Of a stretch of DNA of 12,920 bases, positions 1 to 12,920 are shown piece after piece. The notes below the pieces were generated by a model. That model worked only from the letters and a program-made list of their open reading frames with translations. It had not been told where the DNA came from and did not search any database. Each line of letters opens with the position of its first letter. Positions within the stretch are counted from its first letter, which is position 1. The stretch lies in contig CAWBCT010000012.1 of NCBI GenBank assembly GCA_963787445.1, positions 1 through 12,920 on the forward strand, given 5' to 3'. A program made the translations under genes and the position numbers. This stretch comes from an uncultured archaeon (GTDB taxonomy: Archaea > Micrarchaeota > Micrarchaeia > Micrarchaeales > CABMGC01).

Positions 1-1135
1 CCGCATTGTTGATCGTAACTGTGACAGGCACGTTGTTTGAGGTTATGCCTGCGGCGTCGGTTACAAAGACTAACACTGAAGAAGTAATTGCTGAAGAGCC
101 AGTATTTGTTCCAGATATGGTGCAGATACTATTTGAGGGTCCACAGCCAACAACTATCGATAGTCCTGTCCCCTCCGACCATGCGTAGGTAAATGGATTG
201 GTTCCTCCGGAAGGTATCGCAGTAAAGGTTGTTTGCTGGCCATTGTCTATCGCTACTGGAGATAGGGTGGCTATTGACAGGCTCGGATTAACTGTAACTA
301 TCGCATTTACTGTGTTGGTGAAGACATTTGCAGCGTCGACAGCTGTCACTGATACCGGTGAAGTTATTGCTGAAGAACTCGGGTTAACACCCGATACTGT
401 GCAGAAATTATCCAATGGTCCACAGCCACTATGTATGGAAAGCCCGGCTCCTTGTGACCAAGTATAGGTAAATGGGCTTGTTCCTCCGGAAGGAGTTACT
501 GTGAAGGTTGTTTGCTGTGCATTGTCAATGACTACTTGGGATAGAGCTGGCAATGACGGATCAGGGTTGATCGTAACTGTGGCCTTTTCGTTATTTGAGG
601 CCTGGCTTGTGGCGTCGATCACGAAGACCAGTAGCGAAGAGGTTATTGCCGAAGAGCCGAGATTGGTTCCCGATACAGTACAGGAGGCGTCTAGCGCTCC
701 GCAGCCGCTGACTTTGGTAAGCCCTGACCCTCCTATAGACCAGGCGTAGGTCAGTGGGTCAGTTCCGCCAGAGGGCACCACAGTTAGGGTCGTGTGCTGG
801 CCATTGTCGATGGCTACTGGAGAGAGTGGGGCTATTGATAGACCAGGGTTCACCGTGACTATCGCATTTACTGTGTTGGTGAAGACATTTGCAGCGTCGA
901 GGGCAATCACAGATACGGGTGAAGTGATTGCTGAAGAACCTGAGTTTACTCCTTTTACTGTGCAGGAATTATCCGATGGCCCACAGCCACCATATATGGA
1001 AAGCCCTGCTCCCTGCGACCAGGTGTAGGTTAATGAACCAGTGCCGCCTGAAGATGTCACCGTGAAGGTTGTTTGTTCCCCATCATTAATGGCTGCCGGA
1101 GATAGGGTAGTCAGAGATGGATCAGGATTAACGGT
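1..1135 (-). repeat. At least four tandem ~93-94 aa Ig-like (PKD/SprB-like) stalk domains in ABAB order
   Basis: The GGTxxxTYxW motif recurs at about 1019-1029, 740-750, 458-468 and 179-189 (spacing 279/282/279 nt). Each unit has GCGxxxxxC, SSAITS and VTV/IN. Units 1 and 3 resemble each other, as do units 2 and 4. Confidence 0.85.
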
Positions 1136-3928
1136 TATTGATGCAGGTTGAGATGTAACCCCTTCGTTGTTTACGTCTCCGGAATAGGTTGCGGTTATTG
1201 TTGCGGTTATTGTTGCGGTCCCTGCGCCGATATTATTGTACCCGACGGTGCATGAACCGGCATTCAGAGTGCATGACTCTTCTACTAAAACGCCAGAATC
1301 AACAGCGAAGGTTACAGTGCCAGTCGGCACGCCGTATCCGGTGACTGTTGCAGTGCAGACTGTTTCTGGTGTGCCGTCTATATTTCTAATATCAAATGTC
1401 GGGCATGACACCACCACGGTCGGGGTGGGTGTAACTATGTCTCCCGAGCTTCCCGTACCGGAATTTACCCAGACATCATTATTGGACAGATCGCTATAGG
1501 TCCAGTTCCAGGCATAGCCATTATTATTGTATGCAAAACTTGCGCTTGCGTCCCCAGTCGGGAAGTAGTGATCCAGCCAGCTAAACGGAGTTGTGCTTCC
1601 TGTCTGGCCAGCCCCATAGGTGCCGAGCAATATGTCGTTTTCCGTGCCGTCAAAGTTGAATGGGCCGATATTTCCGGTTGTCTGGGCCGAAGTATTGAAG
1701 GTGCTCGACGTGAATGTGGCTGTGTAGCCTCCGCTTATTGGACCACAGCCGCTGGTGGGTTCCGCTATCCCATTTCCAGGGCTTAATGCTCCCTTGAATG
1801 TGCACCAGGTTCCCAGATATATGACATTTGCGGCATACGTTGTCTGCCCGGTTTGCCACACCATTATGTGCTTTGCGTAGCTGTCAAGCGCCCAGTACCC
1901 GGAGAATCCGCTGTCCTCGTCGTGGTTTACGTTCACTGTCACGTTTACAAGCGGGCCCGTTATTATCTCGCCGCTGTTGGACTGCGAGACGCTGGATGAG
2001 TCAACCCAGGTCTGGGTTCCTACCGGGCTCTTGTAAACGTAGGTGTAGGTGTAGCCGTTCGCTCCTGGATTCACGTTCGTAACGTCGGTGAAGTAGGGAG
2101 TCAGTCCGTAGGTGAAGTAGTAAGTGGTGCCGGAGTTCCCGTTCATGTTATAGGGTCCTATGGATGAATTGTCTGCCGCGTTTGCCAGGCCACCGGTTGA
2201 GAACAAAGTTGCATCAAAGGTCACGTTCTGGCTTCCGGTCATGGTAGCAATTCCGTTAGCCGGCTGGATTATCCCGTAGTTGGGGCTTGGCGATCCCGCG
2301 GTGATATAGGACTTTCCTGAGTCTGTGAGGTATGCAATGAAGCTGTTCGCTCCAGTCTGGTATACCTTCATCGTCCTGGAGAAGTTGTCATTCGCCCAAT
2401 TGCCCATGTATCCGCTGTCCGCATCGTTTAGGACGTTCGCGGTTACAAATAGGACCAGCTTGCTGGTTATGATATCGCCATAGGAAAGTAGGATCTGGGA
2501 GGTGTCAACCCAAGTCTGAGAACCACCCGAAGGGGTAGCGTAGGCGTAGCTGTAGGTGTATCCGGGCTGCACCTCGTTGGTTACGGTGCCTGAGAAGTAA
2601 CTGTTGGCAAGCGCCAGGAACTGATCGACAGAACCCACTCCCGGATTTTGCGGGTTAGCCAGGAGATCGCTAACGCTTGAGCCTGCGTCGTAGGTGCCTA
2701 TGAAGGCATTGCTTGTGGAGAAAATAGGGGTTAGGTCGCCTGTCGAGACGGGAACGGCATTCGGGTTAAATGTGCCCTCAAGTGTCCAGCTCTGCGTACC
2801 ATCCATGGCGGCGGTGCCGCTGAATGGCTCCACAGTTCCCGACTGGGGGCTTCTTACGCCAGCAGGTATGAAGGACGTTCCGACATCGGTAAGGTTAATC
2901 GTGTAATTCTCTGAGCCCGTCTGCCAGATCTGGAGAACCCGGTTGAATGTATCTATCGCCCAATAGGTGCCGAAGTTTCCGCTGTCCGCGTCGTTTATAA
3001 CATTTGCATTTACTTGTAGTGCGAGCACTCTTGGACTGAAGCGGCTGCTGTTAGTGGTATTTGTTATGTAGGAGCCTATGTATGCGGCGGCGTTGGTAAA
3101 CGCAACGTTTACTGCAGCGGTCTGGTTTGTAACATAGACTGTAGTAAATCCATTGGGATCGTGCGGCAGCGATACAACATACGGGAAGTAGGAGGTGTTA
3201 ACGTGGACATTGGTGATGGTGTAGAGCGGGTTGTCGATCTCGGTGTAGGCCTTGGTGCTCTCCCCGAAGTTGTTCACGCCGTTGATGGTTATGTTGTTTG
3301 ATCCACCAGGATAATTGTACTTTCCGGAAGCATAGATTGCTAGTCCTGCCCATGCATTTCCAGAGGTTGTAATGTTGCTGAAATGAACATTGTTTGAATC
3401 GGTTATTGAAAACCCGGTTCCATAGACAACGTTTGCAACGGTTACATGATCAATGATTGCATAATTTACGCCATTAAGGTCTACTCCGGTCCTGTATGAC
3501 GCGATAACAGTCACGTTTTGAATCGCAACGTTTGAATCACCCTCTACTTTTATTCCGTAACCAGAGCTGTGGCTGCTTACACCTTCAAGCGTTAATGACC
3601 TTATTGCAACAGAATTCGCGTTGGTGTATATTCCGTACGATGTCGAGCTGGATGATATTATTACTCCACTCTCTGATGCGCCGACAAGGGTTAGTGGTTC
3701 ATTTATTGTTAGTTGTCCGGTGTTGCTATAGGTTCCTGCCATTATATAGACGACTGGGCTAAGATCTAGAGTGTTTGCTTCTGCAGCAATTATTGCGCTT
3801 TGTAGGGTAGAGTAGGTTGCCCCACTTCCACTTGGGCCGACCGTGTATGTTGCGGCCGATACAATCTGGGTACCAAACCCGACTGCCAAAATTAACGCAA
3901 ATATAGCCAATAGAGCATAGTTTTTCAT
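1..3928 (-). CDS. Large secreted cell-surface protein (>=1309 aa, 3' end outside window): signal peptide, pectin-lyase-like beta-helix, 3 large DxDSG-W repeats, Ig-like stalk repeats
   Basis: Manual translation from ATG 3928 (GTGGTGGA immediately upstream) reads open to position 2. It begins MKNYALLAIFALILAVGFGTQIVSA-ATYTVGPSGSGATYSTLQSAIIAA...VVYIMAGTY, a signal peptide plus the typical beta-helix N-cap. It is probably missing from the ORF track because it has no stop in the window. The plus-strand ORFs at 6, 198, 501, 792, 1236 and 2694 all share one register, consistent with shadows of a single uninterrupted frame. Confidence 0.9.
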   Translation of the reverse strand, partial: MKNYALLAIFALILAVGFGTQIVSAATYTVGPSGSGATYSTLQSAIIAAEANTLDLSPVVYIMAGTYSNTGQLTINEPLTLVGASESGVIISSSSTSYGIYTNANSVAIRSLTLEGVSSHSSGYGIKVEGDSNVAIQNVTVIASYRTGVDLNGVNYAIIDHVTVANVVYGTGFSITDSNNVHFSNITTSGNAWAGLAIYASGKYNYPGGSNNITINGVNNFGESTKAYTEIDNPLYTITNVHVNTSYFPYVVSLPHDPNGFTTVYVTNQTAAVNVAFTNAAAYIGSYITNTTNSSRFSPRVLALQVNANVINDADSGNFGTYWAIDTFNRVLQIWQTGSENYTINLTDVGTSFIPAGVRSPQSGTVEPFSGTAAMDGTQSWTLEGTFNPNAVPVSTGDLTPIFSTSNAFIGTYDAGSSVSDLLANPQNPGVGSVDQFLALANSYFSGTVTNEVQPGYTYSYAYATPSGGSQTWVDTSQILLSYGDIITSKLVLFVTANVLNDADSGYMGNWANDNFSRTMKVYQTGANSFIAYLTDSGKSYITAGSPSPNYGIIQPANGIATMTGSQNVTFDATLFSTGGLANAADNSSIGPYNMNGNSGTTYYFTYGLTPYFTDVTNVNPGANGYTYTYVYKSPVGTQTWVDSSSVSQSNSGEIITGPLVNVTVNVNHDEDSGFSGYWALDSYAKHIMVWQTGQTTYAANVIYLGTWCTFKGALSPGNGIAEPTSGCGPISGGYTATFTSSTFNTSAQTTGNIGPFNFDGTENDILLGTYGAGQTGSTTPFSWLDHYFPTGDASASFAYNNNGYAWNWTYSDLSNNDVWVNSGTGSSGDIVTPTPTVVVSCPTFDIRNIDGTPETVCTATVTGYGVPTGTVTFAVDSGVLVEESCTLNAGSCTVGYNNIGAGTATITATITATYSGDVNNEGVTSQPASITVNPDPSLTTLSPAAINDGEQTTFTVTSSGGTGSLTYTWSQGAGLSIYGGCGPSDNSCTVKGVNSGSSAITSPVSVIALDAANVFTNTVNAIVTVNPGLSIAPLSPVAIDNGQHTTLTVVPSGGTDPLTYAWSIGGSGLTKVSGCGALDASCTVSGTNLGSSAITSSLLVFVIDATSQASNNEKATVTINPDPSLPALSQVVIDNAQQTTFTVTPSGGTSPFTYTWSQGAGLSIHSGCGPLDNFCTVSGVNPSSSAITSPVSVTAVDAANVFTNTVNAIVTVNPSLSIATLSPVAIDNGQQTTFTAIPSGGTNPFTYAWSEGTGLSIVVGCGPSNSICTISGTNTGSSAITSSVLVFVTDAAGITSNNVPVTVTINNA
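297..900. repeat. Perfect 43-bp direct repeat pair (297-339 and 858-900)
   Basis: ACTATCGCATTTACTGTGTTGGTGAAGACATTTGCAGCGTCGA occurs twice, 561 nt apart (two Ig units). Confidence 0.95.
1188..1219. repeat. In-frame 12-bp tandem repeat (2.7 copies) encoding TATI-TATI-TAT
   Basis: GTTGCGGTTATT GTTGCGGTTATT GTTGCGGT, inside a Big_3-like domain ending TITATYSGDxN. Confidence 0.9.
1430..3030 (-). repeat. Three tandem ~170-190 aa repeats with a DxDSG-x(3-4)-WAxD ... QTG ... WV(D/N) ... G(D/E)I(I/V)T signature
   Basis: NDADSGNFGTYWAIDTFNR, NDADSGYMGNWANDNFSR and HDEDSGFSGYWALDSYAK. The shared 10-mer TCCGCTGTCC lies at 2978-2987, 2411-2420 and 1907-1916 (periods 567 and 504 nt). Confidence 0.85.
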
Positions 3929-3938
3929 TCCACCACTT

Positions 3939-4023
3939 AAGGTTCTGTCGAGTGTAAAATAGTTGGGAGCGGCAGTAAAAAAATGGCTCGGTATCTCAAC
4001 TATTTTGCCTTAGACTTAACCTT
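3939..4023 (-). promoter_or_regulatory. Long imperfect hairpin filling the predicted 5' leader of the large surface protein gene
   Basis: AAAATAGTTGGGA (3956-3968) pairs with TCTCAACTATTTT (3994-4006) at 12/13 positions. It is extended by GTC/GAC (3947-3949/4013-4015) and AAGGTT/AACCTT (3939-3944/4018-4023). An A7 tract at 3977-3983 (U7 in the transcript) lies in the loop. Confidence 0.6.
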
Positions 4024-4024
4024 C

Positions 4025-4065
4025 ACCATATGGTCTGGGAAAGTTAGATATATACGTCTTTCGGC
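4025..4065 (-). promoter_or_regulatory. Putative archaeal BRE/TATA promoter of the large surface protein gene, with a 10-bp palindrome
   Basis: Minus strand reads GCCGAAAGACG-TATATAT (TATA at 4054-4048), predicting a TSS near 4024. Palindrome ACCATATGGT at 4025-4034. Confidence 0.5.
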
Positions 4066-4087
4066 TTGCTTAGTTTTGAGATAATTC

Positions 4088-4100
4088 CTTTTATATTTAT
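4088..4100 (+). promoter_or_regulatory. Putative TATA box of hjc
   Basis: TTTTATATTTAT lies about 30 nt upstream of the CTG at 4126 and inside the ORF-track N-terminal extension. Confidence 0.5.
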
Positions 4101-4125
4101 CCAGAGCAGTAAGCCTGGCGATTCA

Positions 4126-4575
4126 CTGCACAGGTACGTCAAAGGCGCGCGGAGCGAAAGGGAACTGCTGAACAGGCTCTACGAGAGCGGCTACTCTGTG
4201 ATACGGGCTGCCGGCTCCGGAGTAAATGCTCTTGGACCCGACATAATCGCGGTCAAGGACCAGTTCTGCATGGCCTTCGAGTGCAAGGCCTGGGAGAGGA
4301 ACAGGCTGAGCATAGACCCTGAGGCCTATGTAAAACTAAGGGAGTGGGCCGACAATACAAAGTTTCCCACCTATATAGCCTGGAGAATGAACAACAAGGG
4401 CTGGTTCTTCGTTACCCTTGACGAGCTGAAGCACGGGGAGAAGGATCACAGCATCACCAAGATAAGGACGCTTGAGATAAACCGCCTCTACGAGCATGTC
4501 ATCTCCAGGACAGAACCACAACAGGCGCAGAACGAAAAATCTGTATTAACTAATCTTAAATCATTAAGTCCTTAA
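4126..4575 (+). CDS. hjc: Archaeal Holliday junction resolvase Hjc (PD-(D/E)XK nuclease)
   Basis: KGARSERELLNRL, GYSVIRAAGSG, PDIIAVK and AFECK match the Hjc signature. The ORF track starts at TTG 4066, but the conserved region begins at CTG 4126 (xHRYVKG). Confidence 0.9.
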   Translation: MHRYVKGARSERELLNRLYESGYSVIRAAGSGVNALGPDIIAVKDQFCMAFECKAWERNRLSIDPEAYVKLREWADNTKFPTYIAWRMNNKGWFFVTLDELKHGEKDHSITKIRTLEINRLYEHVISRTEPQQAQNEKSVLTNLKSLSP

Positions 4576-4579
4576 TATT

Positions 4580-5965
4580 TTAATCTTTCTTATCTTTGGT
4601 ATATTTTGAAGAGCGTCCGCTTCCAATTTTCTTGAGAATCATTTGCAAAACTAAATCATTCAAGTACTTTATGGCTGTGGGATGGGATACACCGATGATT
4701 TGGGCATAATGTGGTGCTGTTAGAAATTCGTGTTTTTCCAGATATGCTAATGCTTTTTGTTGCATGTTGCTAATATTGCCGTAGGGCTTTGCTACTCGAT
4801 CTGAAAGCGGACCATAGAGTACTATACGGAAGAACCCGCCAAGATCATCAAATACAGGGTCTGGCATTCCATTATCGCGCATTATTCCGATAATGGCTCT
4901 AACACCAAGATTGAGCCCATCGCCCCAGCCTGCATCGTTTAGGATGCGATGTAGTATTGGATTGCGATGTCGGCGCAAATCAGCAAAATTTTTGAGCGTC
5001 TGGCCCGGAAGCAGGGTACCTGGATTAGTTAGCGTGATGCGATCGTCAAATATTTCTACCAAAATTCCGTTAGGGTCAAAATAATCACGATGGCCCACAG
5101 CGTTGGTGAGGGCTTCGCGTAAAACCTTGTCTGGAACCATTGGCATCTCGACGCGTCTTCCATTGATTATGCGGGCTGCGATTCCTGCCTTTTCTTTGAT
5201 TATAGAGAATGCTTTTTCTAACAATTCGGGGCATGTATCTATTAGGCGTTGATCATATTCCCTAGATTCGATTGATGGGGTTCGGCCTTTGTATTTGACG
5301 ATACGTATTTCGCAGTTTGAGAAGAAGCGGGTAATATCCTTTGCAAAAGCTAACAGGCCAACATTTTTTATATAGAATTCTCCGATTGCATTGGCAACTC
5401 CGAGAGATTGCAGGAGCGCTTCTGCCGGAACCTCACCAATCTTTGGTTTTTTGTCTGTTCGATTAACTAAATGTTTACCGATCTTCTCTTCAGAAAGATC
5501 TTTTAATTTGGCGGCCGATCTGCCTTCCTCAAATGAGATAATACCGCGTGCTTTAAGAAACTCTATAAGTTGTTTATGGGAGACTTCCACGTTAACAGAT
5601 CCTTGTCTTACGTAAACTCGATTCCCAAAAAAACAGACGTCCCCAGGGGATAATGCCGAGATATTAACAAGGATGACAAGTTTACCATCTATATTGTGTT
5701 CTTCATAGCTGACCAATGGCCTTGGTTCAAGCTGAGGTAGAATAGCCGCCATTTTCTGGTAAGCTTCATCCTTTTTCTGAATTCCGATAGCGGCTGCTTT
5801 TCCGTTTACTGACTCTATTCCAAGCACTAACAGTCCGCCTCCAGCATTGGCGAAGGCACATACAGTCTGTCCAATTCTATCGGCAAAATGGACAGACTTC
5901 TTGAATTCTAACCTTGATCCCTCTTCCTGGGAAAGGAGGTATTGTACTTCTTCCTTCGAAAGCAT
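4580..5965 (-). CDS. Schlafen/AlbA_2 domain protein with HATPase_c_4 (RecG C-terminal-like) and C-terminal winged-HTH domains
   Basis: EEGSRLEFKKS and VCAFANAGGGLLVLGI (AlbA_2); LREALTNAVGHRDY, EIFDDRITLTNPG, RNPIL and GLNLG (HATPase_c_4); C-terminal QQKALAYL...VSHPTAIKYLNDLV...KIGSGRSSKY (wHTH). Visibly more AT-rich than its neighbours. Confidence 0.9.
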   Translation of the reverse strand: MLSKEEVQYLLSQEEGSRLEFKKSVHFADRIGQTVCAFANAGGGLLVLGIESVNGKAAAIGIQKKDEAYQKMAAILPQLEPRPLVSYEEHNIDGKLVILVNISALSPGDVCFFGNRVYVRQGSVNVEVSHKQLIEFLKARGIISFEEGRSAAKLKDLSEEKIGKHLVNRTDKKPKIGEVPAEALLQSLGVANAIGEFYIKNVGLLAFAKDITRFFSNCEIRIVKYKGRTPSIESREYDQRLIDTCPELLEKAFSIIKEKAGIAARIINGRRVEMPMVPDKVLREALTNAVGHRDYFDPNGILVEIFDDRITLTNPGTLLPGQTLKNFADLRRHRNPILHRILNDAGWGDGLNLGVRAIIGIMRDNGMPDPVFDDLGGFFRIVLYGPLSDRVAKPYGNISNMQQKALAYLEKHEFLTAPHYAQIIGVSHPTAIKYLNDLVLQMILKKIGSGRSSKYTKDKKD

Positions 5966-6008
5966 ATTAAAATATTAAACAATAACATATTTAATACTAT
6001 TTAATACA
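5966..6008 (-). promoter_or_regulatory. AT-rich promoter (leaderless type) embedded in the right inverted repeat, with tandem 10-bp and 8-bp repeats
   Basis: TATTTAATAC x2 at 5988-6007 and ATATTAAA x2 at 5964-5979. Minus-strand TTAAATA lies about 25-30 nt upstream of ATG 5965. Confidence 0.5.
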
Positions 6009-6041
6009 AAACTTGCATAATTAGGGGATAATTTTAGCAGT

Positions 6042-6809
6042 TTATACTCCCGCGTCAAGGATCTCCTGAAGGATCCCTTTTGCCTGCTCCGGGCTTGAGA
6101 CCGCTATGCAGTCCACCTGCAGGGTCAGGACGGGATAGTCGTTTCCGCCCTCGAAGAGGGCGTCGCCTATGAAGAGCATCTCATCAATGCTGAAGCCGAG
6201 CCTCTCCTGTATCTTCTTTATCCCGTAGGCCTTGTCTATTCCGGCCAGGGTTACGTCTATCGAGGTGGTCCCGCCAATCTTTGCCTGGGTCCCCTCCGGC
6301 AGATATTTATTGAGGTGCTCCACTATCTTCAGGCGCTTGCTTGCATCGGGATCATAGGCGCTTTTTATCTCCAATGGCGCGGTCTGGCCGTTGGCCGAGA
6401 AGGTTATCTGGGTGCCCCTGTCCTCGATAAGTTCACCGTATATCTTCTCCGGTTTCTGGAACCCCGCATCTGCGAGCGCCTTATCGAAAGCCTCGAAGAT
6501 CTGCTTCTTCTTTTCATCGGGAAGGCTCTCGGTGTAGACGTTCTGCCACTCGTTGCCGTTGTTAACGTACATCGAGGTTGCACAGGTCGGGAAGAGGTAA
6601 AGATGGGAGAGGTCGGCGCCATCGGCAGGAATGGACTTCACGAACTGGGTGAGGAACTGGTTGTAGGAGCCTCCGGAGATTACCGCAAAGTGCTTGAACC
6701 TGAGCAGGCGCGCGATTATGCCGGCCATCTCCGGATCCATGGGCGACTTGCTCTCCGCAAGGGTCCCGTCGAGGTCAGCTATTATTATCTTTTTTGAAGC
6801 GTAGTCCAT
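6042..6809 (-). CDS. HAD-IIB family enzyme, alpha-phosphomannomutase-like
   Basis: Motif I ADLDGTL, motif II ISGG, cap motifs IEDRGTQITFS and GGTTSIDV, motif III DK, motif IV FIGDALFEGGNDY. Confidence 0.85.
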   Translation of the reverse strand: MDYASKKIIIADLDGTLAESKSPMDPEMAGIIARLLRFKHFAVISGGSYNQFLTQFVKSIPADGADLSHLYLFPTCATSMYVNNGNEWQNVYTESLPDEKKKQIFEAFDKALADAGFQKPEKIYGELIEDRGTQITFSANGQTAPLEIKSAYDPDASKRLKIVEHLNKYLPEGTQAKIGGTTSIDVTLAGIDKAYGIKKIQERLGFSIDEMLFIGDALFEGGNDYPVLTLQVDCIAVSSPEQAKGILQEILDAGV

Positions 6810-6813
6810 GTTT

Positions 6814-7569
6814 TCATCTTATGGTGATTCCGAGTTTTCCTCCGTTCTCACGCAGCCATTTCCGCCTCTCCTTGTAGTCTGGCACAGCCTTCGCCACCAA
6901 CGCCCAAAACGCGGGAGAGTGGTTGTGCTGGCCGAGGTGCGAGAGTTCGTGCGCCATCACGTACTCAAGAATCGGGTAGGGCGCAAAGAGTAGTCTAACG
7001 TTCAGATTTATAGTCTTTCTCGGATGCGTAGTGCTGCCCCAGAGCCTTCGCTGCGATTTTATCTTGAGGTCGTTGAACTTGAATCCGTAGAACCGCTCGT
7101 TCAGTGCGTCAAGCCTGGAGCGCACTTCCGGCAACATCGCCTTTGACAGTCCAAGAGTGGTGAGCCTTGATATTGTTTCCCTGCGCGCATCCTCATCGTA
7201 GGCAAGAGGGGTCCTTATCTTCAGCAGGCCCGGCTCGAGGCGCACCGTGGAACGCTGGGCAAGGCTCTGCTCATCGACTTCTATCCTTACCGGGCTCCCA
7301 AGAATATTGATCACATCGCCGTTCGCGAACGCCGGAGCCTTTTTGTCGTCGAGAGCGGAGAAGCCGTCGCGGGAGAGCTTCTCTAGCCTCTTTACCACCT
7401 TCTGCGTCAGGCCGTTTATCAGGTCGATGCGGGTGGAACGGCTGATCCACCTGGGAAGGCGTATGGTGACGCTGTTCGAGTCGAAGCGCGCCACCGCCGT
7501 CCTCCTTCTCTCCTGTATCACAAACAGGTCGAAGCGCCTGCCCTGCACTTCTATCTGCCGTTCATCCAA
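6814..7569 (-). CDS. YgjP/DUF45-like (M48/SprT-type) zinc-dependent metalloprotein
   Basis: KSQRRLWGS, INLNVRL, EYVMAHELSHL, NHSPAFWALV and PDYKERRKWL. TTG start preceded by AAGGTG. Confidence 0.88.
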   Translation of the reverse strand: MDERQIEVQGRRFDLFVIQERRRTAVARFDSNSVTIRLPRWISRSTRIDLINGLTQKVVKRLEKLSRDGFSALDDKKAPAFANGDVINILGSPVRIEVDEQSLAQRSTVRLEPGLLKIRTPLAYDEDARRETISRLTTLGLSKAMLPEVRSRLDALNERFYGFKFNDLKIKSQRRLWGSTTHPRKTINLNVRLLFAPYPILEYVMAHELSHLGQHNHSPAFWALVAKAVPDYKERRKWLRENGGKLGITIR

Positions 7570-7578
7570 TAAAGCACC

Positions 7579-8139
7579 TTAGCTCAGGTCCACCGCAAGC
7601 GGGCACTGCGCCCAGTAGTTGGCATTTCCGTTCTGGTACAGCTGCTGCGCGTTTATTGTGCTGCTGTTGTAATTGCTGTAGGTGAGCACTATTCCAGGCT
7701 CTGCGCCCGCCTCGCTCGTGCAGGTTGCGGCTGATGCATTTTCTGGGGTAACCTGATGGCCTAGGCCGTTTGGCGAGTACGTGCAGCTGGTCTCATTGGC
7801 CTCATAGAAGTCTATCGTGCTGGGGCTGCGCTGGTTGGAAAGGATCTCGATGATGTAGGTGACGCACGGCTCCTCCGAGTTGAACTGTGTCAGGTTGTCA
7901 TAATTAACAAGCAGGGAGATCCTGGGTGCTGTGGAGAGGCTAGCCTTGAATGTCGAGAAGGAGGCGCTGCTTATCTGAATGGGGCCCTCTTGGCTAACGA
8001 CGAAGAGCGCTATGGCTGCAAGTATGATTATGCCTGCCGCTACAAAAAGGGCGTTCCTCTTTCTGCTTGAGGCTGTCTTCTTCTGAAGGGCCGCCTTGGT
8101 GGTTGCCTGTGCGCCCTGCTGTTTCTTCGCTGCTGGCAT
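7579..8139 (-). CDS. Single-pass membrane protein with a 4-Cys extracellular domain, unknown function
   Basis: Basic N-terminus, TM helix ALFVAAGIIILAAIALFVV, four Cys and several N-x-S/T sequons. Gaps of 4 nt and 9 nt to its neighbours. Confidence 0.8.
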   Translation of the reverse strand: MPAAKKQQGAQATTKAALQKKTASSRKRNALFVAAGIIILAAIALFVVSQEGPIQISSASFSTFKASLSTAPRISLLVNYDNLTQFNSEEPCVTYIIEILSNQRSPSTIDFYEANETSCTYSPNGLGHQVTPENASAATCTSEAGAEPGIVLTYSNYNSSTINAQQLYQNGNANYWAQCPLAVDLS

Positions 8140-8143
8140 ATGA

Positions 8144-10204
8144 TCATCTTATGAAGAAGGCGGGATAGCACGCGTTGATGAATGCGGAGTCGCCGTTTGC
8201 CGTCATCACCGTCCCGTAGAACGAGTAGACGCTTATGCTCTGCGTGCCTGCGATGCTGAGCGCCACCACCGGCGTCCTGCTGCGCGCGTACTGGGTCATG
8301 CACTGGCTGACGTTCATGTCGACTATGCCGGGTCCGGAGCAGACGTTGCCGGAGGTGTAGATCGTAGTGGCAGTGTAGTTGTAGGCAGTGGCGTAGGCTG
8401 TTATCTCGCTTGCGCAGGTAGAGAGCGCGGGGCTCGTGCCATTCAGCGCAATTACAAGGCTTCGCGAGGAGTGCACCGCATCGGTGAACAGGTTGGCAGG
8501 GGCGCTGGAGTTCGCGATGGAGGCGATCTCATAGGTCGCAAAGACGAAGATCAGCACTATCGCAATCACTATTATGAACAGCCATAGCCAGGCGCGGCTC
8601 GTCCTGTGGCTCACCTTGAGCTTCCTGCGCGCCTGAAGGCGCAGGTGGTAGAAGAAGAGCAGTGCCAGCAGTATTATGCCGATTATAAGCGAGAGAATGG
8701 AGGAGAGGAACGGGGCGGAGGCGATCGTGGATTGGTATGAAAGCCCCTCAACTGACGACATGAACGAGACGAACGGCTCGTTTATCGCGCGGGAGACTCC
8801 CTCAAGGCTGAAGTCTATGGTAAGGCCGTAGTTCGGCAAGAGGTTGTCTATTTGGAAGAGCTGCGCAAGCAGGGCAGTGGTGTTCTGCACCTGGCTTCCG
8901 AATTGACCGTTGGCCTGTGCCTCCTGGAATGCGAGTGCGGCTGTCTTGTTTGAGGTGTCGCCGTTGAGCTGCGCTGCTACCAGCACCACCGTGTTGTTGC
9001 GGGCCTCGCTCAATAAGGAGGAATAGGTTGCATTGACCTTAAGGTACGTTGCCCTAAGCTGCGCAAGGGAGGTCTGCAGTGCGGCTGCGTATGAGGTTAT
9101 GTTTATCTGGGCGTAATTGGTCTTCAGGTAGGAGTAATCAGAGCTCACAAGGGCGGTCTCTGTCTGGAGCGTGGCGTTAGAGATGTGCAAACCAAGCAGG
9201 GCGCTTGCGTTTGTGGTCGTGGAGAGGCCCTTGAGCGTGGTGTTCAGTACAACTGCAAGCTGGGTCGACTTCTGCGCGACAAGGGTGGGAACTATGTAGG
9301 CGTTCTCAGAAGCATTGACGCTCTGCGCCAGCACCGCGATCTTCGCAGAGGTGGGCAGGGAGGCGGCTATGCCGTTAAGCTGCACAGTGACATTGTTAAG
9401 CTGCGTGGGCTGGTATGTGAGCAGTCCGCAGTAGCCTATGGCGTTGCAGTACCAGGGCCCTGAGCTCGATGAAAGGTTGAAGCCTATGTTGCCGCCTAGC
9501 CCGCCGCAGAGCGAGAGGTCTGAGCTGGCAAGCGGAGGAAAGATCGGGTTCTGGCCAATTGTCTGCGTTATTGTAGAGACGTTGGCGAGCGCGTTGAGGA
9601 GCTTCTGTATTGCGACGAACGGGCTGGCGGTGCTCTTGGAAGAGCTGTAGTTGTTGAATATGGTTAGGTTGCTCTCCAGCTGGTTGTACTGGATCTCAAA
9701 GCTCGCTATCCCTGTGCCGAGGGTGCCCCCGGGGCCGTCTGTCGCGTATAACGCCTCATTGCAGGAAGGCACCGAGGCGCAGGACTGACAGAGGTTGGCG
9801 TAGGTACAGGTGCCGCGGTCAATTCCCGTCTCTATCAGGCAGTCGGTAAGGTTGTATGAGGAGCCGTTGAGATAGACGCCTAGTGCCTGGGCGGCTGGTG
9901 CGAAGTTGACGGCCTTCAGGCTTGCGCCTTGTATTGTCGGCGTTATGATCGTTGCTATGGTGGCTGCATTGAGGATGAAGTGGTACTGGCTGGATGAGGT
10001 GTTTATCAGGAACACTGGAGAGCTTCCGCTGTAGACCAGAACGTAGCTGTGGCTGCCGTAGGAGATGTTGGTGAAGGTTGCGCCGCTTACGAGGGTGCTC
10101 GAGACATTATAGCTCTTCAGCAGCGCGGTTATGCCCGCGTTTGAGGCGCCTAGGACGCCGACAAGAAGGACAGCGAAGAGCAGAGACGTAGTTTGCCTCG
10201 ACAT
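8144..10204 (-). CDS. Large membrane-anchored glycoprotein-like protein (~686 aa), unknown function
   Basis: Likely start is ATG 10204 (MSRQTTSLLFAVLLVGVLGA, signal peptide); the ORF track starts at TTG 10219. It has a Cys-rich segment, a long helical region, two TM helices around the basic loop HLRLQARRKLKVSHRTSR, a C-terminal 4-Cys domain and many sequons. Confidence 0.85.
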   Translation of the reverse strand: MSRQTTSLLFAVLLVGVLGASNAGITALLKSYNVSSTLVSGATFTNISYGSHSYVLVYSGSSPVFLINTSSSQYHFILNAATIATIITPTIQGASLKAVNFAPAAQALGVYLNGSSYNLTDCLIETGIDRGTCTYANLCQSCASVPSCNEALYATDGPGGTLGTGIASFEIQYNQLESNLTIFNNYSSSKSTASPFVAIQKLLNALANVSTITQTIGQNPIFPPLASSDLSLCGGLGGNIGFNLSSSSGPWYCNAIGYCGLLTYQPTQLNNVTVQLNGIAASLPTSAKIAVLAQSVNASENAYIVPTLVAQKSTQLAVVLNTTLKGLSTTTNASALLGLHISNATLQTETALVSSDYSYLKTNYAQINITSYAAALQTSLAQLRATYLKVNATYSSLLSEARNNTVVLVAAQLNGDTSNKTAALAFQEAQANGQFGSQVQNTTALLAQLFQIDNLLPNYGLTIDFSLEGVSRAINEPFVSFMSSVEGLSYQSTIASAPFLSSILSLIIGIILLALLFFYHLRLQARRKLKVSHRTSRAWLWLFIIVIAIVLIFVFATYEIASIANSSAPANLFTDAVHSSRSLVIALNGTSPALSTCASEITAYATAYNYTATTIYTSGNVCSGPGIVDMNVSQCMTQYARSRTPVVALSIAGTQSISVYSFYGTVMTANGDSAFINACYPAFFIR

Positions 10205-10228
10205 TGAATCAGTATTCAATATGCAAGT

Positions 10229-10242
10229 AATATTTAAATACT
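10229..10242 (-). promoter_or_regulatory. TATA box of the four-gene operon
   Basis: Minus-strand TATTTAAATA at 10240-10231, 27 nt upstream of ATG 10204. Confidence 0.6.
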
Positions 10243-10354
10243 CAACGCTTCTTTGCGGGAGTCGGAAAACACCTAGAATTTCCAGATGTCGACTAGAATC
10301 TCTAAAATATTTGGAATGGGAAATTTTGCCGATGCTCTACGCTAATGGGCAGAT

Positions 10355-10412
10355 AAAAGATTAGGGCCCCGATGAGGGGCCCAGAAAAAGAAACGAGGCC
10401 AAAAAGAAAGGC
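10355..10412 (-). terminator. Terminator of the S-layer gene: two T-tracts plus a GC hairpin
   Basis: After the stop, the minus strand reads TTTCTTTTT twice (10409-10401, 10393-10385), then GGGCCCC-TCATC-GGGGCCC (10382-10364), then TAATCTTTT. Confidence 0.75.
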
Positions 10413-10447
10413 CAATAAACTGTGGCTACGTTAGGCTGCTAGTCCAC

Positions 10448-11374
10448 TTAGACTGTCGCGTTTGCGAGCAAGTCCTGTATGAACTGGTTTCCTGCCGTCA
10501 CGGTCTGCGCTGCAGAGTATCCTGCGACCAGGACTCGGTTCGTACCAAATGCCTGGACCACTACTGAAGAGGTTCCGAAGGTCTGGTTGAACGACGGGTT
10601 CTGTCCGAAGATCTGTCCTGCTACGGAGTTGACGTACTTGCTTCCGACTACGATCAAGGTCGATGCCGAGTTCGCGTTCGAGTCTAGCACTGCCAAAGGC
10701 GTTACAGCCGTGTTCAGGGTCGTTGGGACCACTGCCTGGCTCACTGACGGAACAGCAGTCAGGTTGCTCAATCCGGAGACACTGCAGCTTGTGGTCGAGA
10801 ACGCACATGTCGCGTTTACCTTTGCTATGGTCACGTTAGGGATGTTTGTCGACTGTCCCACCGTGTATGGACCATCTGTCGCAGAGGTCGAGATGCTGTT
10901 CGAGGCCGTGCTTGCAGGACCAATTACGAAGGTCAAGCCGTCGATCGTCTTAGGCTCGTCGTACACAATCGAAGTTGTGGAGATCGAGGCTAGTTCGCCG
11001 CCGCGCTCTGTCCTGAAGCCCGGCAATGCCTTCACTGTAGCACCCTGTGAAGACTGGTACTGCACAGCGTTGTTGTTGCCACCTGTCACGTTTAGCCAGT
11101 ACAACGGAGTTGAGTCAACTGTCGAGCTGTTTGTAAGACCAAACATCACGTTTGAGCCCGGCGTTGTTAGCCCAGGTACGTCTATTTCGTTAACCGTGTA
11201 CGTGAAGTACTGGTTCCTTGGACCTGCACCTGCAACTGAAGGCGAGATCACGAAGTTGACGTTGTTCTGCTCTCCCGTGTATGTTACGGTCGAGACAGTA
11301 GGCGCAACCTTGTAGGTGTACTGAGGTACAGAGTACAACAGTGTAGGCGCAGCAGATACATATGATAAGCCGTC
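10448..11374 (-). CDS. S-layer protein, C-terminal segment with S_layer_C-like domain (part of one interrupted gene 10448..>12920)
   Basis: LAVLDSNANSASTLIVVGSKYVNSVA...RVLVAGYSAAQTVTAGNQFIQDL resembles the S-layer C-terminal domain of Methanococcales/Thermococcales type. The frame is open from 11374; the ORF-track start at 11338 is probably not a real start. Confidence 0.8.
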   Translation of the reverse strand, partial: DGLSYVSAAPTLLYSVPQYTYKVAPTVSTVTYTGEQNNVNFVISPSVAGAGPRNQYFTYTVNEIDVPGLTTPGSNVMFGLTNSSTVDSTPLYWLNVTGGNNNAVQYQSSQGATVKALPGFRTERGGELASISTTSIVYDEPKTIDGLTFVIGPASTASNSISTSATDGPYTVGQSTNIPNVTIAKVNATCAFSTTSCSVSGLSNLTAVPSVSQAVVPTTLNTAVTPLAVLDSNANSASTLIVVGSKYVNSVAGQIFGQNPSFNQTFGTSSVVVQAFGTNRVLVAGYSAAQTVTAGNQFIQDLLANATV

Positions 11375-11395
11375 CTATCATAATGCTGTTCGTGC

Positions 11396-12490
11396 CTATG
11401 AGTGTTCATAGGTTGGGGCTGCGGTCAGATAGTTACCAGCAAGACCGTTTGCTCCAACTGATTGGAACTGAACAGTGTTGCTTGTATCCCAAACGTCTAC
11501 TGAGACACCAGGGTTAGGTATCGCATAGCCGACCTGTATGTTCGTCAGGTTTGCAAGCACAAGGCCGTTTATCGTCTGCCAAACAGGCGAGCCCGAGATT
11601 CCATTATTGTTGAAGGTAACGGTGTAAGTCGTAGCAGAAGTCTGCCCGTACTTATAACCAGTTAGCTGCACGTTCAACGGATTGTTTGTCGAAATCGTGT
11701 TTGCAGGCAAGCCAGAGTTACCCCAAAGTCCAACAGCTACTCCGCCGTTTGCCAACGCAAGTACGTTGGATGCGTCCGATGTCGCATACAAGCCGTTAGG
11801 CGTGAAGCTGCTGTCCAGCTGGTAAGGGTCGAGGTTGTACGTCAATGTACCAACGTTTGAGGTCGGTGCAGCCAACGTTCCTGAGCTTACCTGGAAGGCC
11901 GTGGGTATCGTGCTTGCTACTGTCAGCAAGTTAACAGGCTCTGTGACGGTTGTCAAGTTGACCTGCTTGTTGCCGCTATTTCCTACAGTCACTGCACCTG
12001 TAGAGTTAAAGGAACAGCCGTTAGACGATACAACAGTTGCCTTCGTCGGGTTCGAGTACGTTACGCCGCTCTGGTATGACGTAGTGAACGTCAGAGGGTC
12101 GTAGTTCGCGTTTCCGCTGCTAGGCGCTCCCAGAGAGTCTCCTGCGAAGCTTACCTTCCAAGCCGCCGGGCTTGTTACGAAGTTAAAGCTCGATCCAGGA
12201 GTCATAGTCAACTGGTTCGTTTGGTTCGAGTACAGGATTATTCCCTGAAGCGCTGCGTTCGCATTGAATGCGAGCTGTGATACAGCAGCTGTGGACTGGT
12301 TCGTTGTCCACCTCAAAGCAGCCAGCCAGCCGTTGCCGTTGGCGCTGTTGAAGTTCTTGCCGCTCGTCACGTTAACCGTGTTTGAGAACAGCTGGATCTT
12401 TGCCCACTTCTGGTATGCGTACAAACCTGGGAAGGTCTGGGATACCTTGATGAACAGCTTTGTTCCAGATGAGTTCACGGTTATGGCTGC
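11396..12490 (-). CDS. S-layer protein, middle segment (part of the interrupted gene)
   Basis: S/T/N/G/V-rich beta protein containing SQTFPGLYAYQKWAKIQLFSN, with strong AAC/TAC/TTC codon bias and many sequons. Same frame as the C-terminal segment but separated from it by TAG, TGA and TAG. Confidence 0.75.
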   Translation of the reverse strand, partial: AAITVNSSGTKLFIKVSQTFPGLYAYQKWAKIQLFSNTVNVTSGKNFNSANGNGWLAALRWTTNQSTAAVSQLAFNANAALQGIILYSNQTNQLTMTPGSSFNFVTSPAAWKVSFAGDSLGAPSSGNANYDPLTFTTSYQSGVTYSNPTKATVVSSNGCSFNSTGAVTVGNSGNKQVNLTTVTEPVNLLTVASTIPTAFQVSSGTLAAPTSNVGTLTYNLDPYQLDSSFTPNGLYATSDASNVLALANGGVAVGLWGNSGLPANTISTNNPLNVQLTGYKYGQTSATTYTVTFNNNGISGSPVWQTINGLVLANLTNIQVGYAIPNPGVSVDVWDTSNTVQFQSVGANGLAGNYLTAAPTYEHS

Positions 12491-12920
12491 TGGTTCGATG
12501 CAGGCCCTGCGGACGTTACGTTTGTCAGTACACCATTGTTGTATACAGACAAAGCAGCGTTGGACAGTCCGTTAGAGTTCGGGTAGGACAGGTCGTTCAG
12601 AACCACTGTGAAAGGTCCGCTTGTCACGTTGTGGCCAACGTACACGGTCTGGATAGGCGTTGAAGCCTGTGCCAGTGTGACGTTACCACCAACTATGAAG
12701 TTGGCAGAAGCAACGCCAGTGTAGCCGCTTGTCGGAGGCGTCATTCCATAGACCGTCCAGTTCTGACCGAGCAACTTGAGGTTTGCGTTTGTTGCGCTTC
12801 CTCCAGAAGTCACCGGAATCGGCTTACCAAATACTATCTGGTAGGCGCCGTTCGTGTCGAGCACTGAGATCGAGCCTGTGTTCTGGTTGTATACTGGGAA
12901 TCCAGCCAGCCAAAGCGACT
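12481..12920 (-). CDS. S-layer protein, upstream segment (5' end outside window; part of the interrupted gene)
   Basis: The frame is open from 12918 (SLWLAGFPVYNQNTGSISVLDTNGAYQIVFGKPI...LKLLGQNWTV...VYVGHNVTSGPFTVVLNDLSYPN). It ends at TAA 12483-12481, one base out of register with the next segment. Confidence 0.75.
   Translation of the reverse strand, partial: SLWLAGFPVYNQNTGSISVLDTNGAYQIVFGKPIPVTSGGSATNANLKLLGQNWTVYGMTPPTSGYTGVASANFIVGGNVTLAQASTPIQTVYVGHNVTSGPFTVVLNDLSYPNSNGLSNAALSVYNNGVLTNVTSAGPASNQQP

Follow-up and report, generated by a model that had tools for sequence, protein, structure and literature searches.

Inverted TTAA-core arrays around a Schlafen-GHKL ATPase-winged helix gene recur across a mainly micrarchaeal clade

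A 12,920-nt stretch of DNA from an uncultured Micrarchaeota archaeon (contig CAWBCT010000012.1 of GenBank assembly GCA_963787445.1, positions 1 to 12,920; hereafter the window, meaning the whole stretch analysed) carries a gene encoding a Schlafen-GHKL ATPase-winged helix-turn-helix (wHTH) protein enclosed between two 43-nt inverted repeats, or arms. Comparison with related loci outlined this arm-gene-arm arrangement, here termed the cassette, as a feature conserved with the gene across the archaeal clade to which the protein belongs. The protein family itself was already known, and it is the presence of the arms as a family-level feature that is new here. With moderate confidence, we favour the interpretation that each arm is an array of cognate operators for the wHTH domain of the protein itself, that the upstream arm also serves as the core promoter, and that both arms travel with the gene on a horizontally transferred cassette.

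The arms and the gene they enclose

Repeat finding and our own count placed the arms at positions 4542-4584 and 5966-6008 of the window, with 33 of 43 positions matching in inverted orientation, and a repeat scan returned them as 43-nt arms, 77% complementary and with 1381 nt between them. The match includes perfect stretches of 8 bp at the outer end and 13 bp at the inner end. TTAA tetranucleotides are present at 4546, 4556, 4564, 4572 and 4580 in the left arm, and at 5967, 5975, 5991 and 6001 in the right arm, which also presents a degenerate copy near 5982. The open reading frame (ORF) at 4580-5965 is the only long one between the arms. It is read from the minus strand, and the right arm therefore lies upstream of it, with an inner motif, TTAATATTTTAAT, that directly adjoins the ATG (5963-5965). 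The stop codon (4580-4582) falls inside the same inner motif of the left, downstream arm, which additionally supplies the final 11 codons of the convergent hjc gene and its stop (4573-4575). The GC content is 0.41-0.47 within the cassette versus 0.53-0.56 in its neighbours. A first-pass annotation of this DNA had reported the 33/43 repeat with its perfect outer and inner stretches, the TTAA positions, the ATG abutting the right repeat, the stop codon inside the left one and a cargo more AT-rich than its neighbours, and all of these are present as it described them.

The AT content of both flanks (81-91%) is what would speak for a chance likeness between two AT-rich intergenic stretches, an explanation to which we assign a negligible probability. 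In dinucleotide-preserving shuffles (1000 for each of three flank definitions), the composition-preserving test that the first-pass annotation had called for, the score of 23 observed under +1/-1 scoring was reached in 0/1000 cases for every flank definition (maxima 16-20), and the score of 13 observed under +1/-2 scoring was reached by 7, 5 and 2 shuffles per 1000. As a natural control, none of the 49 neighbouring pairs among 62 AT-rich 73-nt segments of the same genome reached a score of 18 (maximum 16). In a control with random pairs, 37 of 20000 reached 23; these pairs were not inspected, and their maximum of 70 suggests duplicated contigs. The arms, moreover, recur in 22 of 25 related loci. 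The arm pair is a real repeat, beyond what chance would produce.

The enclosed gene encodes a protein with AlbA_2, HATPase_c_4 and C-terminal wHTH domains (Table 1). An AlphaFold2 model built from 26 homologues (predicted local distance difference test score, pLDDT, of 81.7) folds residues 400-457 into three helices and a beta wing. Foldseek searches matched the full-length model to the structure of DIP2311 (3LMM; E 8.5e-23) and, domain by domain, to SLFN12, 11, 13, 5 and 14 and the SAMD9 tRNase domain, to the GHKL kinases PDK2 and PDK4, and to the wHTH of CadC (probability 1.00, E 0.011). Profile searches likewise returned SLFN14, 11, 5, 12 and 13, and also 3LMM. In PADLOC, a pAgo model was matched in its Schlafen-GHKL part alone (3.1e-20), and NCBIfam has no named family for the Schlafen-GHKL-wHTH protein. 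The score of a predicted homodimer was 0.00 against a mark of 0.42, which counts neither for nor against. In the alignment of 26 sequences, E284 and N288, which we take to be the N-box of the GHKL domain, are invariant. Also invariant are E15, E20 and K22, which make up an Ex4ExK motif, and the available text of PMC13056530 gives Ex4(E/D)xK as the catalytic motif of prokaryotic Schlafens.

The protein is a member of a known family, designated pSlfn-HisKinase-HTH or 'Schlatpase-HTH', with which it shares the three domains, the Ex4ExK motif, the GHKL ATPase and the C-terminal wHTH. According to the available part of PMC13056530, Slfn-HisKinase-HTH proteins account for 19.2% of 5,930 pSlfns. The accessible portion of 10.64898/2026.05.29.728809 names the Schlafen and GHKL supradomain 'Schlatpase', locates it in 60,692 of 103,533 prokaryotic SLFN proteins and states that more than 90% of the tails of stand-alone Schlatpase members carry an HTH. 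It also describes a pAgo fusion, RzAgo, in which ATP drives the formation of a tetramer (a dimer of dimers) and the Schlafen domain cleaves tRNA. By analogy, we infer a tRNase-based defence function for the protein encoded in the window.

Conservation of the arms, promoter position and co-variation with the wHTH

Relatives of the window protein, the closest of which are recorded as Candidatus Micrarchaeota, were drawn from genome collections and metagenomes (80 of the 404 metagenome relatives were kept), and their flanks were read. Many of the compared loci are metagenomic, and their relatedness to one another is unknown. The layout was counted in 72 distinct full-length loci with both flanks, taking as arm-bearing those with an inverted-flank score of at least 14. 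Among loci with at least 45% protein identity, which are archaeal and mostly from Micrarchaeota, 22 of 25 were arm-bearing, versus 3 in a control with backwards flanks. The corresponding values were 2 of 9 (control 0) at 35-45% identity and 0 of 38 (control 1) below 35%. The exceptions in the uppermost bracket are L030, with an upstream arm only, L064, with a score of 12, and L032, which presents a partial downstream arm within a C-terminal extension. In a quick maximum-likelihood tree, all arm-bearing rows were contained in a single 34-row clade (Shimodaira-Hasegawa-like approximate likelihood-ratio test, SH-aLRT, 98), and 22 of the 26 rows in the core clade were arm-bearing.

In nearly all of the archaeal relatives, the upstream arm opens with a short run of T, followed by two ATTAAAT units spaced 10 nt apart, a spacer of 9-11 nt and the inner TTAATATTTTAAT, which the ATG follows directly. 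The downstream arm is an inverted copy with the stop codon within its inner motif, and its inner end is positioned at -5 of the ORF end in most orthologue loci. For pairs of loci with 55-70% identity in coding sequence, four-fold sites are saturated (0.29-0.31 identical). In the same pairs, the outer 23 nt of the upstream and downstream arms are approximately 0.90 and 0.74 identical, respectively, with an upward bias at 14 core positions stemming from the motif regular expression with which the arms were located. Checks that do not involve this expression (spacer and flanking positions, blastn and an inverted-repeat scan) are in agreement. Because arm identity stays high while synonymous sites are saturated, this comparison of sequences indicates that the arms are under purifying selection and conserved with the gene.

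In the printed arms, the spacer begins with A upstream (21 of 21 arms) and with T downstream (19 of 19). As such arm-specific differences persist family-wide, they indicate that selection acts on each arm's own sequence, rather than on complementarity between the arms. This observation bears directly on the idea that the arms pair as nucleic acid, either as a stem between the 5' and 3' ends of the mRNA or as a cruciform-like DNA synapse. Such pairing would draw on the 77% complementarity of the arms over 43 nt, but it is the arm-specific mismatches (A upstream, T downstream) that are conserved and not the complementarity, and with a leaderless start the upstream arm would lie outside the transcript. 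We find this explanation barely plausible.

In most loci the ATG abuts the upstream arm. In L028 and L036, however, a leader has been inserted, Shine-Dalgarno-like in L028, and moves the whole arm by 23 nt (L028) and 9 nt (L036). Because these leaders displace the arm in its entirety, its inner end appears to behave like a transcription start. The second ATTAAAT(A) unit occupies positions -30 to -23 relative to the ATG, the usual place for the TATA box of a leaderless archaeal gene. The promoters of host tRNA genes present AAAGT and an AT-rich box at comparable distances, and these tRNA upstream regions were more informative than a genome-wide positional scan of host promoters, which yielded a weak signal only. 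The upstream arm is probably the core promoter of a leaderless mRNA, spanning from the TFB recognition element (BRE) and TATA box to the start site, as well as an operator array. A TATA box alone does not account for its units, which number two, lie one helical turn apart and define a motif unique to this gene.

In seven cassette genomes, the motif was exclusive to this gene. In the host genome, copies of the double unit and of the inner motif at 0 mismatches are confined to the arms, the double unit at 0 mismatches being present only in the upstream arm. In five other cassette genomes, the double unit (at most 1 mismatch) marked both arms of the one cassette present and, apart from one stray match, nothing else. 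The composite upstream-arm pattern returned 3 exact matches in genome_contigs, a collection described as holding one genome per species for 185,579 species, and all three are known cassettes. Furthermore, the motif and the recognition helix and wing of the predicted wHTH change together. Loci with ATTAAAT-type units encode a ..SHPTAI.. helix and an RSS[RK]Y wing, and loci of the sister clade, with tandem units of the ACTTTAA type, encode a VS.[VP]TA[VI] helix and an RGA[HY]Y wing.

Paralogues in the neighbourhood have TTAA-core arrays of other kinds. In L036 (6485-7377), L062 (927-2255) and L041 (5890-7272), a second, divergent Schlafen-GHKL paralogue is encoded less than 3 kb from the cassette. 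In L062 the array of the paralogue is located upstream of a separate TATA-like box, from which it follows that the arrays are not simply TATA boxes. In addition, arrays of TTAACAAT-type TTAA-core units, two direct and two inverted, were observed in L154 (6640-6760, minus strand) upstream of an archaeal ATPase_2/DUF234 gene and in L036 upstream of position 6485, ahead of the AlbA_2 paralogue. These archaea may make broader use of phased TTAA-core arrays as a style of regulation.

Transfer of the cassette and interpretation of the arms

Ten unique pairs of cassettes share 86-93% DNA identity. One of them (L057/L058) is fully syntenic and another (L054/L027) partly so; in the other eight the flanks are unrelated, and homology comprises the gene and its arms only. 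In seven of these eight pairs homology begins between -40 and -57 (L023/L024: -99), and in seven it terminates between +38 and +51 (L023/L051: +79), usually stopping within about 15 nt of the arm ends. The alignment of the window with L024, for instance, covers window positions 4539-6005, with arm ends at 4542 and 6008. The neighbours of the cassette are mostly housekeeping genes (gyrase, PPDK, GrpE/DnaK, SHMT and aminoacyl-tRNA synthetases), together with some toxin-antitoxin or restriction-modification genes. The Schlafen protein was found in none of 10 other genomes of the same genus. The cassettes of genomes G084 and G091 are 93% identical, and the PPDK gene that flanks the G084 cassette matches G091 at 78-85%, on other contigs. 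The unrelated contexts, the absence from congeners, the identities between G084 and G091 and the low GC content jointly indicate that the arm-gene-arm unit has been horizontally transferred. The first-pass proposal of a minimal, self-promoted single-gene cassette bounded by the arms gains support from the foreign GC content, the absence from the 10 congeners and the recurrence in unrelated contexts.

The machinery and hallmarks of transposition were searched for in the same loci. Matches to transposase, integrase or recombinase families in Pfam were found in none of 132 neighbouring ORFs from 26 contexts and in no ORF of the window. No consistent target-site duplication was detected at offsets 0-8 in 18 two-arm loci, which yielded only trivial palindromic TTAA or 3-nt matches. 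The host assembly contains no further copies of the arms at 13 or fewer mismatches, and genomes G000 (the host) and G084-G088 carry one cassette each, with no multiple copies, arm-only miniatures or other cargo. The first-pass annotation had likened the arms to the ends of DDE transposons mobilized in trans, an analogy left unsupported by the lack of a transposase or recombinase, of a target duplication, of a second copy and of other cargo in these searches. The TG(T)...(A)CA termini that it had called typical of DDE transposon ends turned out to be peculiar to the window copy: GT precedes the first unit in 4 of the 21 upstream arms printed, and TG...CA ends are not conserved. It had also envisaged other cargo between the same ends, which was not found in the genomes searched, the three exact matches in genome_contigs being cassettes in all cases. 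An empty hjc-HAD junction was not encountered in the relatives searched, where hjc abuts ygjP and the HAD gene is also extra. As for inverted, excised or circular forms, no joints were identified in Logan contigs bridging both arms (4 DNA runs from one study), although rare forms are invisible in contigs.

Several related candidates were considered and rejected. The empty-site comparison at L024 is not clean, since a relative, G097, presents the flanking PPDK gene followed by unrelated sequence. An inverton was discarded on account of the identical orientation of the cassette in three strain contigs and in the syntenic L057/L058 pair, and of the lack of a recombinase in the window and the 132 neighbouring ORFs. 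No tRNA gene that might have served as an integration target adjoins the cassette in L001, L005, L006, L023 or L024, the nearest being a tRNA-His gene at 1.8 kb in L023. Viral contigs, searched for a possible vehicle, gave only weak 37-residue protein matches and 0 matches to the arm pattern. Separately, an unexplained short repeat (26-49 nt) was noted about 170 nt downstream of the cassette in L024 (5545-5600); genomes G084, G091 and G095 carry it on several contigs at 84-100% identity.

Because the motif is exclusive to the gene, co-varies with the HTH and overlaps the presumed promoter, we favour paired sites for the protein's own wHTH, which was among the possibilities put forward by the first-pass annotation. 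Under this interpretation, the C-terminal winged helix would recognise helically phased TTAA-core sites, consisting of two ATTAAAT units and the inner TTAATATTTTAAT in each arm. The upstream arm (approximately -48 to -1 of the leaderless gene) would coincide with the BRE/TATA/initiator core promoter, and the protein, once bound there, would repress the gene that encodes it, probably a toxic tRNase gene. The downstream arm, inverted and on the stop codon, would provide a second operator cluster, for which different roles can be envisaged. Bridged to the upstream arm by the ATP-driven oligomer of the supradomain, it might loop out about 1.4 kb of DNA; alternatively, it might block read-in from neighbouring genes (here the convergent hjc) or regulate an antisense promoter. 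With its promoter, gene and boundary elements combined in one compact unit, the cassette would be functional wherever it landed, and would have been passed horizontally among DPANN archaea.

A number of observations weigh against this interpretation. The co-variation of motif and HTH amounts to about one independent event, as it maps essentially to a single split in the tree. A symmetric oligomer is more naturally suited to palindromes than to direct repeats, and the double units of the left arm in the window (4545-4561) are degenerate, with 2 mismatches. In the sister clade, loci L040, L043 and L046, where the Schlafen gene lies behind an Eco57I-like gene, lack the upstream array and keep the downstream one, implying that the role of the downstream array needs no upstream partner. 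A solo downstream-type arm was also identified in L154 (6904-6941, minus strand; contig JAKQHW010000011.1), between a riboflavin-kinase gene and the ATPase_2/DUF234 gene. It is 80-92% identical to the arms of L057, L058, L028 and L065, and this 0.9-Mb Micrarchaeota genome presents neither a Schlafen remnant at the solo arm nor a detected homologue elsewhere; most simply, the solo arm is the relic of a lost cassette. Regulation alone, moreover, leaves unexplained the sharp homology ends of the 86-93% identical cassettes (about 15 nt), which hint at a defined recombination or transposition step. Lastly, wHTH binding, promoter activity and looping or insulation are all elements that we infer.

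Among the alternatives, the one that comes closest dispenses with the HTH and regards the arms as twin convergent core promoters, with the upstream arm driving the sense mRNA and the downstream arm an antisense RNA from the stop codon that would silence a toxic nuclease gene. There are precedents for antisense RNAs that overlap toxin genes at their 3' ends. In length and layout, each arm matches an archaeal core promoter; its units are TATA-like, and host promoters are similar. The inner end of the upstream arm matches the presumed start site, as judged from the leaders of L028 and L036, and the downstream arm retains the geometry from unit to inner end. We nonetheless consider this alternative unlikely, given that two 7-nt units at a 10-nt phase and a motif that varies by subclade and paralogue are not general promoter traits, that the array of the L062 paralogue lies apart from its TATA-like box, that the motif is not found at other promoters of the seven cassette genomes searched, and that downstream arms consistently differ in the BRE-like spacer.

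The sharp homology ends are best accounted for if the arms are instead the terminal inverted repeats of a mobile element, moved by a trans-acting enzyme or by the Schlafen-GHKL-HTH protein itself. The unrelated flanks of 8 of the 10 pairs at 86% identity or more, the diverse housekeeping contexts, the foreign GC content, the absence from the 10 congeners searched and the 93% identity of the G084 and G091 cassettes, versus 78-85% for the flanking PPDK gene elsewhere in G091, all fit with such an element. The ends of Tn7 and Mu hold repeated subterminal sites, as do the arms. Set against this are the searches reported above, with no transposase, integrase or recombinase family in the 132 neighbouring ORFs (26 contexts) or the window, no consistent target-site duplication, unconserved outermost bases, and a single cassette per genome searched without arm-only miniatures or other cargo. 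In addition, two pairs share 40-56 nt past an arm, which fits ragged recombination better, the three copies in the assembly are the same locus in strain variants, and the Schlafen domains studied to date are RNases. On this evidence, mobile ends appear decidedly improbable. A bolder version, in which the cassette is an autonomous single-gene mobile element whose wHTH binds the terminal arrays, whose ATP-driven tetramer synapses the arms and whose Schlafen fold cuts and rejoins the ends, would explain why homology stops at the arm ends without any transposase, but we deem it very improbable. Operator arrays for the protein's own wHTH remain our preferred interpretation.

The host locus and relation to known systems

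The host assembly comprises 1.05 Mb in 19 contigs, with 82% completeness and 5.4% contamination, and the window corresponds to contig C12. The cassette has three 100% matches in this assembly, and their interpretation as transposed copies was rejected, because they represent one locus on three strain-variant contigs (C12, C13 and C1). Window positions 3870-12920 are colinear with C13:1595-10670 (96.2%) and C1:1-8881 (94.4%), and this locus of about 9 kb was hence assembled three times. Identity along it is mosaic: the flanks of the block shared among strains (Table 1) differ by about 4-13% among the three contigs, and positions 8245-9844 are identical only between C12 and C13. This pattern suggests recombination, a cassette-HAD-ygjP block that recently swept through the co-existing strains, or an effect of the assembler.

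Table 1. Features of the cassette, its surroundings in the window and the restriction-modification genes of sister-clade loci. Coordinates refer to the window unless preceded by a locus identifier.
Feature	Position	Strand	Evidence and remarks
Downstream (left) arm	4542..4584	+	inverted copy of the upstream arm; inner TTAATATTTTAAT perfect (4572-4584)
Upstream (right) arm	5966..6008	-	two ATTAAAT units 10 nt apart (5989-6005), 10 nt, inner TTAATATTTTAAT (5966-5978)
Schlafen(AlbA_2)-GHKL ATPase-wHTH gene, 461 aa	4580..5965	-	ORF calling, Pfam, AlphaFold2 model, Foldseek
AlbA_2 (SLFN_AlbA_2, PF04326)	residues 15-127, nt 5585-5923	-	Pfam 4e-18
HATPase_c_4 (PF13749)	residues 301-383, nt 4817-5065	-	Pfam 6.3e-17
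wHTH (DIP2311-like_C)	residues 397-455, nt 4601-4777	-	Pfam 6.4e-06; 26.8 bits, marginally below the cut-off of 27
hjc (Holliday junction resolvase)	4066..4575	+	Pfam Hjc 9.4e-21; convergent with the cassette
HAD-IIB hydrolase	6042..6809	-	between the cassette and ygjP; start 4 nt past the ygjP stop
YgjP-like metallopeptidase	6814..7569	-	Pfam; directly faces hjc in congeners
Strain-shared block (cassette, HAD and most of ygjP)	4507..7557		100% identical to C13; two differences in C1 (5008, 6198)
Eco57I/MmeI-like type IIG restriction-modification gene	L040:296-2998		directly upstream of the Schlafen gene
Eco57I/MmeI-like type IIG restriction-modification gene	L043:2-2143		upstream of the Schlafen gene, with a 158-aa ORF between them
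Eco57I/MmeI-like type IIG restriction-modification gene	L046:95-3001		directly upstream of the Schlafen gene

In 10 hjc loci from other genomes of the genus, hjc and ygjP are adjacent in 7, separated by a 729-nt gap in 1, and ygjP is missing from the locus in 2. Neither HAD matches nor the cassette were detected in these 10 loci, and the HAD gene was found in 10 of 60 other genomes of the family (a count that includes the unpublished genome G060), with a best identity of 60%. Relative to congeners, the HAD gene is a second accessory insertion at the spot occupied by the cassette. A HAD pseudogene with in-frame stops was also observed in G045. The C-terminal tail of Hjc, which in the window runs into the left arm, is variable, and the tails differ among the 10 same-genus loci. 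In the Hjc proteins of the genus (window 4507-4575, L010-L020), a core conserved to near ...LEINR... is followed by unrelated tails of 15-25 residues. At the other side of hjc, an ORF of at least 1309 aa (2-3928, minus strand), open at the window end, matches Big_3_5, beta-helix and SprB-repeat families and contains internal repeats of about 510 nt (8-514 versus 566-1075, 76% identical); it probably encodes a surface or adhesin-like protein. In the sister-clade loci with an Eco57I/MmeI-like gene, the Schlafen gene begins at the stop codon of that gene in L040 and L046, and in L043 a 158-aa ORF without known family (2140-2616) lies between the two.

The arms set the cassette apart from the known systems it resembles. 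Within the pSlfn-HisKinase-HTH family they are confined to one archaeal clade, with 0 of 38 distant homologues bearing them. DIP2311 of Corynebacterium diphtheriae (3LMM) matches the protein in full-length fold and by profile, with about 18% sequence identity, but is bacterial. Tn7, Mu and IS21 resemble the cassette in their inverted ends with phased internal sites, their unrelated contexts and a homology that ends near those ends; the cassette differs from them in having no transposase, no target duplication, a single copy per genome, unconserved termini and no other cargo. Autoregulated archaeal promoters and plasmid iteron arrays also present phased direct repeats over the core promoter of the regulator itself, but the cassette has in addition a second, inverted copy on the stop codon and an ORF that fills the space between the inner ends. 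We know of no precedent for an inverted second array placed exactly on a stop codon. Type I toxin-antitoxin systems share with it a putative toxic RNase gene and a promoter-like element pointing into its 3' end, but the two promoters of the cassette would be near-identical copies, and the antisense RNA is hypothetical here. TrlG of Photorhabdus, which is bacterial, shares the pair of AlbA_2 and HATPase_c_4 domains in the portion of its description that is available.

No description of gene-bracketing inverted arrays for this protein family was found in the full-text literature, a coverage that leaves out most subscription literature. The term 'inverted repeat' is absent from the available text of PMC13056530, and flanking repeats are not mentioned in it or in the accessible portion of 10.64898/2026.05.29.728809. 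Neither of these partial texts states the function of the HTH subclass or the target of the HTH tail.

Schlafen-GHKL-HTH proteins are among the commonest prokaryotic Schlafen architectures, and the clade outlined here offers a concrete candidate DNA site for their HTH tail: a pair of ATTAAAT units spaced by 10 nt together with an inner motif, in two copies that are confined to the ends of the gene itself. If the protein binds the arms, they would open a way to learn how cells silence or tether a potentially toxic tRNase. The locus would then constitute a 'plug-and-play' defence cassette equipped with a promoter and boundary elements of its own, and this would account for the spread of such genes among tiny DPANN genomes poor in mobile-element genes. 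Should the arms turn out to be recombination ends, the cassette would represent a new kind of mobile element.

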